Assembly (NCBI RefSeq): GCF_045037415.1
Contig: NZ_CP173440.1
Strand: one strand, 5' to 3'
Length of the DNA: 64,000 nucleotides
Origin: Escherichia coli
GTDB taxonomy: Bacteria; Pseudomonadota; Gammaproteobacteria; Enterobacterales; Enterobacteriaceae
Shown: piece after piece, positions 55,801-61,800 of the stretch
Layout of the letters: each line of letters begins with the position of its first letter
Position numbering within the stretch: the first letter of the stretch is position 1
Program-made: the position numbers

Positions 55801-58800
55801 ATTTCCTTTGTCGATATGGACGAATTTCGGGCCACTGACGACGATTTGACCGGGTTTAAACCCAGCCTTCGCTAATTTGGTGAGGGCCAACTGATAACTA
55901 GCCTCTTCAGATGGAGCAAACTGGCGTCGGCCACGGCCTTCTGACTTTGTTCCTTTATGAAAGATGGCCATTAACGTAATGAACTTGATTTCATGGCCCT
56001 CAGAGAGAATAAGCTCTCTTTTTTTCTCCCCAGGCAACTCCAGAGCTGTAGCTGTGCGGACCAGGAGTAACGAATCATCCCCGGTACCGGGAAAAATTTT
56101 AAAAGAGTACGGCAGCTTCTCTCCCTTACGTTCCTGCATGAAAAAATCCAGGTGCTGGTGGATCTGGTAAACACTTGTGTGACGGATACGCAACCGAAAC
56201 GCATTATCGTAGTAAATCATGGTTATACCTTTTTCAAGAGGTGCAAAATGCTCAGGCGTTGATGGGGATCAGTCGGGGCTTTGTTGAATAAATAAGATTT
56301 CGTGCGAACGACCCTGTAGCTGGCTGGATTTTCAGGCAATACGCACGCTTTCTGGCATCCCAGCCTTTGTCATCCTGTTCAACGCACGCACCATGGCCAT
56401 AGCTTCCGCTACCTGACCATCGTAGTCACGCAGCGTCAGTGAATCTCCCAACAACTGCTTCATTCTGTACATTGCCGTTTCCGCTATCGAGCGACGGTTA
56501 TATTCCGTTGTCCATTTCCACCGTGCATTGCTTCCGCTCAGCCGCTGATTAGCAACGGCACGGTTGCGGTCTGCGTACTCACCGGGCCAGTAACCTGCTC
56601 CTTTTCGGGGAGGAATAAGCGCGCTGATTTTTTTGCGGCGCATTTCATCGTGACAAAGCCGTGTATCGTAAGCCCCGTCTGCCGCGGCTGCCCTGATTTT
56701 TCTGTGAGTCTGCCGGATAAGGCCCGGGAAGGCTTCTGAGTCCGTGACGTTATTCAGCGACAGGTCTGCACAGACAACTTCATGTGTGTTGCTGTCAACA
56801 GCAAGATGCAACTTTCGCCAGATACGACGGCGCTCTTTGCCGTGCTTTCTGACTTTCCATTCGCCTTCACCAAAGACCTTCAGCCCGGTGGAATCAATCA
56901 CCAGGTGTGCGATTTCACCCCGGGTGGACGTTTTGAAACTGACATTAACCGACTTTGCCCGCTTACTGACACTGGTGTAATCCGGGCAGCGCAACGGAAC
57001 GTTCATCAGGGCAAAAATGGAATCAATAAAACCCTGCGCAGCCCGCAGGGTCAGCCGGAATACGCGTTTAATCACCAGAACGGTGGTGATGGCGAGATCA
57101 GAATAGCGCTGGGGCCTTCCTCGTGATGAAGGCGTTGCCGACTCATACCAGGCCTGAATCGCCTCATCATCCAGCCAGAAAGTGAGGGAGCCACGGTTGA
57201 TGAGAGCTTTGTTGTAAGTGGACCAGTTGGTGATTCTGAACTTTTGCTTTGCCACGGAATGGTCTGAGTTGTCGGGAGGATGCGTGATCTGATCCTTCAA
57301 CTCAGCAAAAGTTCGATTTATTCAACAAAGCCCTTTGACATGCACAATTATTGTCTGCCCAATAGTCCGATAGTTAGCCTGTTTACAAAAACTGTTGCTG
57401 GTCATACTGGTGCTTTATTCCCGGTTAAGCGGGCTAGTTAACCCAGAGTGATGAACCATCCTGGAGTGGCAGATAAAGCAGAAAGAATGGATTTGTTGCC
57501 CTGATTTTTTCCGAATCTAAATAAAGATTAGCTTAATCACTCGTTGTTATGTTATAACATTAAATTAGCAATATTCTCAGCCAGCAGCACGGCCTGTGGG
57601 GGGCGGTTATTGAGAACGAATTCGGTGAAATCTGTATAGATGATGCATTGGTTATCAATGCAGATGAAGAAGTCTTCGAGATGAATAATGGCTGCATCTG
57701 CTGCACGGTGCGAGGAGATTTGATTCATATCCTGAGTCGTCTGATGTACCGCCGCGATAAATTTGACCGTATTCTGATCGAATTCCACCGGGATGGCCAA
57801 TCTACTGAGTGAAGCAAATGAAGAGAGAGCCGCTAACGATCCTGAATGGTTTTCTTAGTCCTAGTAAAAACATGCGGTTAAAAATTTGTTAATGCAGACA
57901 CCTCAACCACAATTTCGATGTGCGTCATCGTGAACGATTTGAGCGGACAGGATGTCGGCGGCGTCCTGATTGCCAGTATAGAAATCAAGAAGGAACACCA
58001 TGAAGCGCAATACCGTAAGTAATCTGACAGAAAAAGATGATTTTGATACGCTGGAAAGTATTCTCAGCGTTAATATTCATTCTCTGTTGCGGCCAGACGG
58101 CGGGACGTTGCTTTCTGACGTCCATTTTGCGGTCAAAGCAGGAGAATGTCTGGCCATTATCGGGCCTAACGGCAGCGGTAAAACTTCCCTCGTGAGAGCG
58201 ATTAGTCAGGAACTGACCCATCTAAAGGGGGACATTCTTCTGCGGGGCCGTTCTATGTCTGCTTTATCCCGTCAACAGCGAGCCCGGCTGGTTGCTGTTT
58301 TGGCCCAGAATGATACACCTGATACGAGATTATCCCTTGAGGATTATGTAGCGCTGGGGCGTATCCCTCATGCCGGGGATGTACCGCGTAATGTACATGA
58401 CGCGATTGTAGCAAATGCCATTAAAGAAACCGGATTACAACGGCTACGCAGGCGGTCACTTTTATCGCTTTCCGGCGGCGAAAGACAACGAGCGGCGCTG
58501 GCACGGGTACTGGCACAGACGCCCGACCTGGTATTGCTTGATGAACCCACCAATCATCTCGATCCTCCCGGGCGCGAGGAACTGCTTTCCCTTGTAAAAA
58601 ACAAGGGGATTGCCGTCGTGGCGGTGTTGCACGATCTGACACTGACAGAATCATTTGCTGACCGTGTTCTCCTCTTGTCGCAGGGGCAATCAGTGATCTG
58701 TGACACACCGGAGAAGGTATTGGTATCAGAATACCTTTATCCCGTTTTTGGCTTGACCAGTTTTACCGTACCGCATCCCCATACAGGAAAGGCGTTGCGT

Positions 58801-61800
58801 ATTTTTGAAGTTCCGCATTATGTATAAATTACTTTCCGAGAGTCAGTGATGAAAAAATTGTTTATATCCCTGCTGTCGGTACTGTCTGCTTCAGTAGCCA
58901 GTGCTGCCGATTTTCCTGTTACTATTGAAAGTTGTGGGACTCCTGTAACATTCTCCGGCCCGCCGAAAAGGGCTGTGATCAACGACCTTAATATGGCAGA
59001 GATGGCGTTTGCACTGGATTTGCAGGATCGTATTGTTGGGCTGACCGGTATTAGTGGCTGGTACAAAATGACGCCGGAATTTAAAAAGGCGATGGGCTCG
59101 ATCCCTGAACTGGCACCCAAATATCCCACCCTGGAAACATTGCTGGCAGCCGAGCCTGATTTCTTTTTCGCTGGCTGGAACTATGGAATGAAAGTAGGCG
59201 GCGAAGTGACGCCGGATACGTTAAGCAAATATGGCATCAAGACTTTCGTTCTGAGTGAAAGCTGTGTGTTCACCACTGCGCACAAAAATAAAGCCACGAT
59301 GGATCTGCTGTATAACGATATCCTCACGCTGGGTAAGATTTTTGGCAAGCGCAATGACGCACTGTCCCTAGTCAGCGGCTGGCAAAAGAGGCTGAGTGAA
59401 CTGCCGAAGCCAGCGGCAGGTACCCGTCCTTTAAAGGTGTTCGTCTACGACTCAGGTGAGGATAAACCGTTTACCAGTGGTAAATATGCGATGCCTACGG
59501 CCATGATTGAGGCGGCTGGTGGTAAAAATGCAATGGAGGCGCTGGATACCAGTTGGGGAACGACGTCTTGGGAAAGCGTGGCCGCTACTGAGCCGGACTT
59601 CATTATTTTGTTAGATTACCAGACGGGCAGCGGTGCGGATACACTGCGTCATTTTCTTGAGAATCATCCGTTAATGAAACTGACTCCGGCTGTTCAGCAT
59701 CATCGATACCTGAAATTACAATATGCTGAACTGACGCCGGGACCAGCTAATGTTGGTGCGGTGGAAAAACTCGCGTGGGCAATGTACCCGACAGAAGCGA
59801 AGTGATGCTCATGTCGTACCGTTATCACTGGGTGATGTGGGGATCGATGGTCGTGCTGATTGGGTTAATGTTATTCAGCATAACCAGAGGGACAGTCTCA
59901 CTGTCGCTAATGCAGGTGCTGGGTGCACTGAAGATTGTGGATGAGCCGGTATCTGCCATGGTCAGCAGAATTGTGACGGATTTACGCGTACCGAGGATGT
60001 TGCTCTCTGTGCTGACAGGGGCGGGACTGGCAATGGTAGGGGCATTGTTACAAACTACCACCCGTAACGATCTGGCTGATCCTTTTTTATTCGGGTTATC
60101 CTCCGGTGCGTCAGCAGGAGCGGTGCTGGTGATCACCCGTTTTGGTGATCGACTAGGAGTATTAACGCTCCCCGTATCGGCGTTTGTTGGTGGTGTGTGT
60201 TCCGCCATAGCAGTAATGCTGTTATTTCATTTTAAAAAGCAACGCGGAGCTGAGCATCTAATTCTCTGCGGTCTTGCCATCTCTTTTTTGTTCGGGGCGC
60301 TGACTAGTTATTTTATTTTTTCGGGCGATCAGCGAGCCGCCAGCTCAGTGCTTTTCTGGTCACTGGGTGGCCTGGGATTAGCCACCTGGAATAATTTGCC
60401 TTTTGCAGTGTTCAGCCTGGTATTGCTGTTTGCCTTTGTCCTGTTGCGGTGGCGCTCTCTGGATGGTGTGCTGGCAGGAGAACAAACAGCGTTGTCGCTG
60501 GGGATTAACGTGAGTCGTCTGCGCATCGAGATTTTTCTTTGTTGTGCACTGGCAACATCGTTGATGGTGGCATTAACCGGCGTGATTGGATTTGTTGGCT
60601 TAATGGTGCCTCATCTGTGTCGGCATTTTGCAGGAGTTAAGCATCTGTTGTTGTTACCTCTGTGTGGCGTCTGGGGTGCAATATTACTGTGTGTCGGCGA
60701 TATAGTCAGCCGGACGATACTGGCACCACAGGAACTACCAATTGGCATTATTACGGCGGGCATTGGAGGGTTGTTTATTATCATGTTACTCGCGCGAAAC
60801 TCGCCCTAGAGAATATGGGCGATTACTCGCCGGGCCTCCTGTAATTTTCAAGCGATGTTATGAAACGATGGTAATCTAACTGATGGTTTGAGCGTGCCAT
60901 GTAAGTAAAGAAGAACTGGCAAACCTTAATGTTGCATTATATCATAACAAATGATAAGTGAGGCCCAATGTTTCTCTTACTGGTCGTGCTCCCAAGCATG
61001 CCTTTGGCGAAAAGGTTAGACCTCAGGCTGCGTTCAGCAACTACATGATATCTGTCTGGATTGTGACGGAGATGCGGTACTACTGCTTGTGGTTCAAAAA
61101 GGTGAAGCCTGCCACACAAGTCGGCGGAGTTGTTTTTACAACGCTACCGCCGGCCTTTTCATCCGACCCGTTTCTGGCAGGTGATGGAAAATGAGCTGGA
61201 TGAAGTCGTCAGATCAAAAGGTTACTTCTGGCTGGCCAGCCGTCCGGAATTCGCAGGTTCATGGTCACAGGCTGGTGGCATTGCGCGCCAGGCGCTGGGG
61301 GGCATGTGGTGGGCGAGTGTGCCGAAAGAACGTTGGCTAGAGGATGCTGAGTCACTGAAGTTCATCATGTCTAACTGGATAGATGGCATTGGTGATGCCC
61401 GTCAGGAACTCGTTTTTATTGGAATGGATATGAATGAATCAAAACTGCGCAACAGACTGGATTCCGCCCTGTTAACGGATGCAGAAATGGCTGAAGGGCC
61501 TCAAAATTGGCGGCATTATCCCGATCCTGTTGAGCCTTGGTTCGAAGAATGAATCGAAGGCACCCGTATTTGTCGGGTGCCTTCGTATGAGGGCGAAAAA
61601 GGGGCCATTTTTTAGCCCTTCTTCAGAATCACTCATATTAGAAAAAATACCTTTGTGATTATAAATCCTCATTAGTTTTGATGTGAAACTATTATGCATT
61701 ACCCCATCGCCAAGTATGGTTGCCCCGTAAAGTATTCCGTCCTTAGTTAAAGCAGCTTTCACGTTTTTTATGACAACACCTTTATCCACCATCGCCCCAG

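Follow-up and report, generated by a model that had tools for sequence, protein, structure and literature searches.

The window analyzed here, a stretch of 64,000 nucleotides from contig NZ_CP173440.1 (assembly GCF_045037415.1, filed under Escherichia coli), was identified as DNA of a pLVPK-type Klebsiella pneumoniae virulence plasmid. It carries a Zur box, the remains of two COG0523 genes and three genes for an ATP-binding cassette (ABC) importer, all of which lie where an earlier note on this DNA had placed them (Table 1). The segment 57300-61200 was 100% identical to many K. pneumoniae pLVPK/pK2044-type virulence and hybrid plasmids, including copies moved into E. coli J53, and the importer locus was present at 99-100% identity in at least 572 plasmids (records covering at least 80% of the locus length). 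On identical records, the Prokaryotic Genome Annotation Pipeline (PGAP) lists, in order, an IS5 transposase, a GTP-binding protein (pseudogene), an ABC ATP-binding protein, an ABC substrate-binding protein and a FecCD permease, followed by a phosphoribosyl-AMP cyclohydrolase (pseudogene), a GTP-binding protein (pseudogene), a methyltransferase and a CobW-family GTPase.

Table 1. Features of the importer locus and its borders (positions within the 64,000-nt window).
Feature	Position	Strand	Basis or remark
Conserved leader with promoter region	57338-57544	+	Aligns with pMR0617aac and the Phytobacter chromosome
Zur box TTGTTATGTTATAACATT	57544-57561; core TGTTATGTTATAACA 57545-57559	+	Predicted operator of the importer operon
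Deletion scar, 102 bp	57560-57561		Four-way DNA alignment; ribosome-binding site, start codon and P-loop codons of COG0523-A gone
COG0523-A pseudogene fragment	57564-57812; protein alignment 57564-57782	+	tblastn, Pfam, PGAP pseudogene call
Junction of ~2.1-kb deletion	57799-57804		Alignment to pMR0617aac, Phytobacter and E. typographi
COG0523-B pseudogene scrap	57818-57986 (57818-57883 and 57912-57986)	+	Alignment to intact 398-aa ortholog
ABC ATPase, intact	58000-58827	+	Pfam ABC_tran PF00005, E = 1.1e-31
Periplasmic binding protein, class III / cluster A-II, signal peptide	58849-59805	+	Pfam Peripla_BP_2 PF01497
FecCD-type permease	59805-60809	+	Pfam FecCD PF01032 positions 2-311 of 311, E = 1.2e-82
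Weaker Zur-like box	60935-60949	-	Two mismatches, 19.3 bits on the matrix; ahead of decayed hisI-zigA
hisI-zigA wreckage	60978-61552	+	tblastn; Pfam CobW_C
IS5-family insertion sequence	56332-57337; transposase 56332-57300	-	Pfam DDE_Tnp_1_5 and DDE_Tnp_1, PGAP; upstream limit of the locus

All three importer proteins gave full-length Pfam matches. The Walker A (GPNGSGKT), signature (LSGGERQR) and Walker B (LLDEPT) motifs of the ATPase were read in the translation, and together with the FecCD permease and the cluster A-II binding protein with its signal peptide they identify a type II (FecCD/BtuCD-like) ABC importer. Each gene keeps its own ribosome-binding site. The translational coupling ascribed to the genes in the earlier note holds for the binding protein and permease, whose stop and start codons overlap (TGATG), but not for the ATPase and binding protein, which are 21 nt apart. 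The ratio of non-synonymous to synonymous substitution rates (dN/dS) against the Phytobacter ortholog was 0.19 for the ATPase, 0.16 for the binding protein and 0.05 for the permease, with similar values against more distant orthologs. The window binding protein also retains 97 of the 97 family-invariant columns (at least 97% invariant in 80 orthologs). These comparisons indicate that the transporter, already described as intact, is under purifying selection.

The core TGTTATGTTATAACA was the sole zero-mismatch match in the 64 kb to TGTTATNNTATAACA, the gammaproteobacterial Zur core (1 found versus 0.01 expected). At up to two mismatches, the window gave 14 strand-matches against 1.78 expected; these correspond to seven sites, most of which precede genes of Zur-regulon type (dksA2/folE2, hisI-zigA, a cysS paralog and others). 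The flanks were scored with a 25-nt matrix derived from the boxes at orthologous loci (43 non-redundant sites; training range 19.0-39.7 bits, median 35.2). On this matrix the 57545 site reached 24.9 bits and ranked fifth in the window, behind four boxes of 27.5-31.7 bits, so that the former description of it as the best Zur box in the window is right for the core alone. Direct DNA alignment showed a homologous Zur box in the plasmid pMR0617aac, in Phytobacter and in Erwinia typographi. A possible extended -10 element, TGtTATAAC, was read by eye at 57550-57558, inside the box. No Fur box was found anywhere in the window (19-mer, up to three mismatches), which leaves iron regulation unsupported, and an Rfam scan of 55-64 kb at E values up to 1 matched no family, cobalamin riboswitches included.

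A scan of one genome per species gave 557 relatives of the binding protein, and the best 80 of these 557 loci were studied. The gammaproteobacterial comparison set comprised 52 loci with enough upstream sequence (Enterobacterales, Vibrionaceae and Glaciecola); boxes with at most one mismatch were accepted, and distances were counted to the ATPase match. A Zur box headed the orthologous operon in 48 of the 52 loci, and 4 had none. The box lay within 400 bp of the ATPase match in 41 loci. In 7 others it led a longer Zur-type operon from a position 1.5-3.8 kb upstream, and the intervening genes in the loci examined were COG0523 genes, or folE2 with a gamma-carbonic-anhydrase-like gene. Of the distinct boxes in 662 kb of gammaproteobacterial loci, 48 of 53 occupied an operon-head position. 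On the plasmid, the surrounding island contains further Zur boxes before zinc-independent paralogs, and no terminator-like site lies between the Zur box and the ATPase gene. Zur control of the importer operon, which the earlier note had proposed to persist, is thus a prediction well supported by comparison. The same note held that COG0523 genes are frequent first genes of such operons; for this importer, a COG0523 gene stood between box and importer in only about 4 of the 52 loci. Since most loci carry no COG0523 gene, its loss returns the plasmid locus to the commonest architecture.

Both fragments behind the box proved to be COG0523-derived when they were aligned to intact orthologs, the check that had been named beforehand. 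Fragment A corresponds to residues 24-96 of an intact 449-aa COG0523 protein, is 88-90% identical by tblastn to its counterparts in E. typographi and Phytobacter, and matches positions 47-90 of Pfam cobW (E = 1.9e-11). As described before, it keeps NGCICCTVRGDL (GCICC motif) and has lost the P-loop to a deletion; everything past residue 96 is gone as well. Fragment B covers two parts, residues 1-22 and residues 33-57, of a COG0523 protein of 398 aa. Its P-loop region, called stop-riddled in the earlier note, is recognisable in mutated form (GFLSPSKN), and its further lesions are a frameshifting 1-nt deletion, a stop codon at 57890 and deletion of the 3' end (~1 kb). An intact P-loop, a full GTPase domain and a CobW_C domain are absent from both fragments. 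The ~2.1-kb deletion took the rest of COG0523-A together with nearly the whole of a WD40 gene (WD40 by Pfam), a loss that had been missed, and fused codon ~103 of COG0523-A to the final bases of the WD40 gene. Four nested deletions in all have left 73 codons of COG0523-A and 47 codons of COG0523-B.

Comparison with relatives revealed how this state arose. E. typographi has an intact operon consisting of a Zur box, COG0523-A (449 aa), a WD40-repeat protein (345 aa), COG0523-B (398 aa), ATPase, binding protein and permease, and the comparison marks this gene order as that of the ancestral operon. Phytobacter massiliensis (NZ_HE578945.1, 2536-10472) shares its gene order with the plasmid island, and its importer proteins are 94-98% and its HisI/ZigA 98-100% identical; these identities and the common order suggest that a Phytobacter-like enterobacterium was the likely donor lineage. 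Phytobacter keeps COG0523-A and the WD40 gene, while of its COG0523-B (4970-5138) only a scrap is left, which bears the 1-nt deletion, stop and 3' truncation seen in the window. This scrap is identical to that of the plasmid base for base, indicating that decay had set in before the locus came to the plasmid. pMR0617aac has no insertion sequence (IS) at this place, and similarity to it begins at ~57338. It retains the COG0523-A start codon, a degenerate P-loop (RILGSRKTT), a perfectly palindromic box and an intact zigA after the permease, and it shares the ~2.1-kb deletion. The order of deletions indicated by the comparison is therefore most of COG0523-B in the chromosomal donor lineage, then the 3' part of COG0523-A with the WD40 gene, and then the start and P-loop of COG0523-A. 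Each deletion brought the operator nearer to the importer, from 3.7 kb in Erwinia to 441 nt before the ATPase start in the window. As reconstructed from these relatives, the decay started in a chromosomal ancestor and went on in the plasmid.

The decay of the chaperone genes had been tentatively ascribed to redundancy with two other COG0523 genes in the window. Three other intact ones were found. Two of them, at 24372-25571 and 62666-63865 (both on the minus strand), are 98.5% identical to each other, which suggests that a Fur-like/COG0523 module was recently duplicated within the plasmid. The ortholog of fragment B is ~67% identical to these two paralogs, so redundancy fits fragment B. It fails for fragment A: no intact copy of its WD40-paired subfamily exists in the window, where ZigA is nearest at 42%.

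Outside the gammaproteobacteria, the same importer is wired differently. A cobalamin riboswitch lay upstream in 13 of 25 alpha- and betaproteobacterial orthologous loci, where the binding protein is 54-64% identical; five of the riboswitches were confirmed with Rfam at 75-137 bits and the others were found by profile search (E up to 5e-21). The riboswitch of Rhodoferax bucti is followed in turn by a cobB/Q-type amidotransferase, a second Peripla_BP_2 protein, cobU, a CbiM-like gene, cobO, the importer, cobW and cobN, and this cobW is a true cobW (TIGR02475, 498.7 bits; cut-off 332). In another Comamonadaceae genome, a Fur-family (Zur-like) gene and znuCBA come first, then zigA (582.9 bits against the ZigA model) and the importer, with a YjiA-like GTPase last; this importer beside znuCBA is 70-84% identical to the copies in B12 contexts. 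Stappia has a zigA-like gene immediately before the riboswitch and importer. Only three columns of the binding protein (I252L, Y287F and K289A) discriminate between the Zur and B12 groups. With the binding protein almost unchanged, the ligand is very probably the same in both regulons, and the contexts point to a Zn/Co-type metal species or a corrinoid. A metal species, probably a small chelate, is favoured because the importer has cobalt-insertion genes around it and both kinds of COG0523 protein as neighbours, because some genomes place it beside znuCBA, and because Rhodoferax possesses a separate BtuF-like protein besides it. We tentatively suggest, as a possibility rather than an expectation, that the family is a supply line of COG0523 metallochaperones for one Zn/Co species, wired to zinc (Zur, ZigA-type COG0523) in gammaproteobacteria and to cobalamin (riboswitch, CobW) in alpha- and betaproteobacteria.

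Structure and profile comparisons were also used to examine the ligand. An AlphaFold2 model of the binding protein (predicted local distance difference test score 85) matched only cluster A-II binding proteins in Foldseek, with a template-modelling score of 0.79 to 4mlz. The top matches, 4mlz and 4n01, are structural-genomics proteins whose entry titles name no ligand; they are followed by haem binders, CeuE (catecholate), MolA (molybdate) and BtuF. All NCBIfam equivalog models (Fec, Fhu, Fep, Eit, Btu, haem and F420-0) fell below their cut-offs for the importer proteins. The best-scoring models were F420-0 for the binding protein and permease and the haem ABC ATPase for the ATPase (208 versus 261), with F420-0 next (205.5 versus 372.4). 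A putative F420-0 transporter was rejected, since TIGR03868 (172.4 versus 392.4), TIGR03869 (214.8 versus 437.35) and TIGR03873 were all below cut-off. Database names of close homologs were uninformative.

Taken together, the locus is probably a Zur-repressed operon for a type II ABC importer that has lost its leading genes and whose ligand would be a Zn(II)/Co(II) species. With enough zinc, Zn-Zur would occupy the box and, if the box overlaps the possible extended -10, would block transcription. Under zinc starvation, transcription would cross the untranslated pseudogene leader into the three importer genes. The binding protein would then capture its ligand in the periplasm and dock on the permease dimer, and ATP hydrolysis would power import. 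The ligand is the least certain step. It would be the molecule that is also imported by the alpha- and betaproteobacterial orthologs under the cobalamin riboswitch, namely a Zn(II)/Co(II) species that is supplied, probably as a small chelate, alongside COG0523 metallochaperones, and neither iron nor haem.

Several observations weigh against this interpretation. Zur-dependent expression of this locus is a prediction whose support is comparative. The box scores 24.9 bits against the median of 35.2 for orthologous sites because the 102-bp deletion altered its flanks, and a sigma-70 consensus scan gave no plus-strand match at the box, so that the promoter there is inferred by eye only. Rho-dependent termination could occur in the 441-nt untranslated leader. 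Two plasmid variants differ by 22 changes, 12 non-synonymous and 10 synonymous (dN/dS ~0.4); 22 substitutions are too few to judge, and selection between the variants may be relaxed. On the side of the ligand, the binding protein has a single invariant histidine, many of its invariant residues are aromatic, and its two invariant cysteines probably form a disulfide. The nearest characterised structures found by Foldseek bind haem. Together these features agree with an organic ligand, a corrinoid among the candidates, no less well than with a metal ion.

One alternative, which the aromatic-rich invariant residues and the lone invariant histidine keep alive, is uptake of a corrinoid (B12, cobinamide or similar). 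Placing the operon under Zur would then be a means of zinc sparing in gammaproteobacteria, for example with little B12-dependent MetH replacing abundant zinc-dependent MetE. Near-identical binding proteins stand behind cobalamin riboswitches and inside cobalamin gene clusters, and at one alpha/beta locus a riboswitch precedes B12-independent nrdAB and then the importer. A dedicated outer-membrane receptor is not needed: BtuB exists as the outer-membrane receptor for B12, so a corrinoid importer could do without a receptor gene of its own. The same idea was raised for the P. aeruginosa system PA2911-2914 by Pederick 2015 (PMC4542158). However, the importer proteins scored far below the equivalog cut-offs of BtuF (27.7 versus 234), BtuC (186.6 versus 334) and BtuD (122.1 versus 281), and BtuF was only 43rd among the structural matches. 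The Rhodoferax cluster has its separate second Peripla_BP_2 protein, and the importer is placed there exactly among the cobalt-insertion genes cobB, cobO, cobW and cobN, positions from which Rodionov et al. 2003 reportedly predicted cobalt transporters. In some betaproteobacteria the importer also lies beside znuCBA-zigA. We consider corrinoid uptake doubtful, if still worth serious thought. In the Serratia sp. AKBS12 locus (2742-5030), metE, which encodes the cobalamin-independent, zinc-dependent methionine synthase, lies directly upstream of the Zur box and importer; this adjacency may bear on the zinc-sparing idea, and coincidence is possible.

It is unlikely that the operon is a silent remnant, with a Zur-box promoter made useless by the deletions and genes intact only for want of time. 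The degraded flanks and low score of the box, the long untranslated leader, the decay of all neighbouring genes, the dN/dS between the plasmid variants and the IS element 208 bp upstream would all agree with such a remnant. Yet across the plasmids the three frames stay intact amid wrecked neighbours, divergence from Phytobacter has proceeded at a dN/dS of 0.05-0.19, and every invariant residue is preserved. The operator core is free of mismatches, and every gene has a ribosome-binding site. An importer of iron, haem or siderophores, as suggested by the PGAP and JGI names ("iron ABC transporter permease", "hemin"), by FecCD/Peripla_BP_2 superfamily membership, by haem-binding proteins as the nearest characterised folds and by the iuc genes nearby on the plasmid, is very improbable, since the window has no Fur box, the orthologous operons examined are headed by Zur boxes or B12 riboswitches and never by an iron signal, equivalog models are far below cut-off (e.g., FecE 162 versus 375, EitA 90.7 versus 640), and the family has no invariant arginine, a residue commonly used to bind ferric siderophores.

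Downstream of the importer, the HisI fragment (60978-61154) comprises residues 67-125 and the ZigA C-terminal fragment (61133-61549) residues 269-407. A ~0.8-kb deletion removed the 5' part of this zigA, which is intact at the same place in pMR0617aac; in Phytobacter, zigA is apparently frameshifted in assembly NZ_HE578945.1 near 9858-9867. Between the methyltransferase gene (61472-62179, minus strand) and the next COG0523 gene, 62405-62540 is a perfect tandem repeat, (ATGGAAAT)x17, which could be prone to slippage. One plasmid that is otherwise identical, NZ_CP173548, carries a frameshift in the methyltransferase gene. On the other side, orphan type I-E Cas6/CasE and DEAD/DEAH helicase genes (54689-56220, minus strand) adjoin the IS5 element, with no CRISPR array noticed nearby.

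Elsewhere in the window, 15789-24301 contains candidate zinc-independent paralogs: hemB, a pyrC-like dihydroorotase, an M14 peptidase, a short thrS, DUF1460, a QueD-like PTPS, carbonic anhydrase, folE2 and dksA2. p130-1 and other plasmids carry a partial second copy of some of these genes beside IS5. Fur-family regulator genes lie at 25669-26121 and 32496-33020, the second scoring 84.5 bits against the Zur model (cut-off 167), and a third, shortened copy apparently lies just past the window end, divergent from the COG0523 gene at 62666-63904. The genes behind a one-mismatch Zur box at 27622, one for a Pyr_redox_3 oxidoreductase (27656-28786) and one for a FeoB-like GTPase/Gate-domain transporter (28780-30447), could form a second zinc-regulated uptake candidate on the plasmid. 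Another one-mismatch box, at 36538, lies just within the longest predicted open reading frame (ORF; TTG start 36512) of the first ATPase and heads a Nik/Opp-type ABC system (36512-42819) with two ATPases, an embedded major facilitator superfamily transporter, an SBP_bac_5 protein and a fused permease. This layout resembles opine-metallophore importers; biosynthesis genes were not seen.

Hypervirulence plasmids, like hybrids that combine resistance and virulence, retain the DNA lying between rmpA and iuc, and our evidence puts the genes of this segment in a zinc-starvation (Zur) island. No K. pneumoniae chromosome occurred among the 80 best of the 557 related loci, a result obtained without a direct chromosome check, so the plasmid may add an importer that classical strains lack. 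If the Zn/Co supply line is real, the plasmid would give K. pneumoniae a third route for zinc or cobalt, independent of ZnuABC and ZniCBA, which could matter under calprotectin stress. Publications on hypervirulent Klebsiella name a neighbouring gene "cobW, cobalamin biosynthesis" and use "hemin" or "hemin/iron transporter" for genes on the plasmid (PMC6780558), the "hemin" of the maps being in our reading this importer; the labels "iron", "hemin" and "cobW, cobalamin biosynthesis" are unsupported by the evidence presented here. A literature search by the accessions of the three importer proteins found no paper. The retrieved passages of Haas et al. 2009 flag a Zur-regulated cluster on pLVPK and pair COG0523 subfamily 5 with WD40 genes (PMC2770081). 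This is the same plasmid island with the same regulator, and the WD40 pairing is that of the ancestral operon; the importer and the pseudogene remnants are not mentioned in those passages, the additional files having been outside the search.

Among known systems, BtuFCD shares the type II transporter and fold, and the orthologs of the present importer are under B12-riboswitch control. Identity with BtuFCD was rejected, as all three proteins lie far under the equivalog cut-offs and no cobalamin riboswitch occurs at 55000-64000. ZnuABC and ZniCBA of K. pneumoniae are likewise Zur-controlled ABC importers for zinc, whose cluster A-I binding proteins take free Zn(II) via three histidines and a carboxylate (PMC10797113). 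Identity with them was also rejected: the window protein belongs to cluster A-II and has no PF01297 (ZnuA) match, whereas ZniA belongs to cluster A-I (PMC10797113). CbtJKL of Sinorhizobium meliloti is a Co(II) ABC importer with a BtuF-like binding protein and a cobalamin riboswitch, as in the alpha/beta orthologs (PMC7689651). It differs in having the binding protein gene first (J-K-L) and no Zur control, and represents a separate family. The riboswitch-linked pSymB binding protein is only 25% identical and the gene order is another, so CbtJKL was not accepted as an ortholog and is kept as a mechanistic precedent.

Pseudomonas Zur regulons include FecBCD-type ABC systems next to TonB-dependent receptors, in agreement with the earlier note (PMC4542158). 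PA2911-PA2914 of P. aeruginosa and PFL_0643-0645 of P. protegens resemble the importer in being Zur-regulated (predicted or shown) and in having a cluster A-II binding protein and a FecCD/BtuC-like permease, and PA2911-2914 shares its order of ATPase, binding protein and permease. Chelated zinc or cobalt/B12 species have been proposed as their ligands (PMC4542158, PMC10393844). In contrast to PA2911-2914, which has a TonB-dependent receptor gene, the present importer has none, is plasmid-borne and is accompanied by COG0523 pseudogene remnants. No receptor-sized ORF was found in the window, consistent with the previous statement that an outer-membrane receptor gene is missing, and no TonB-dependent receptor was found among nine Pfam-tested representatives of the clustered ORFs of at least 500 aa from the 80 loci (housekeeping, CobN, MacB-like and so on). 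Pseudomonas was absent from the ten nearest 50%-identity clusters inspected, with Vibrio, Photobacterium, an archaeon and Parendozoicomonas among the nearest. Debate over what Zur-regulated cluster A-II ABC importers carry goes back at least to 2015, with PA2911-2914. Because near-identical binding proteins are Zur-controlled in one lineage and B12-riboswitch-controlled in another, the candidates narrow to Zn/Co species or a corrinoid. What is new here is that the alpha/beta orthologs lie under cobalamin riboswitches beside true cobW-cobN with the binding protein almost unchanged, and this contrast of Zur and B12-riboswitch wiring within one importer family is the most useful lead.

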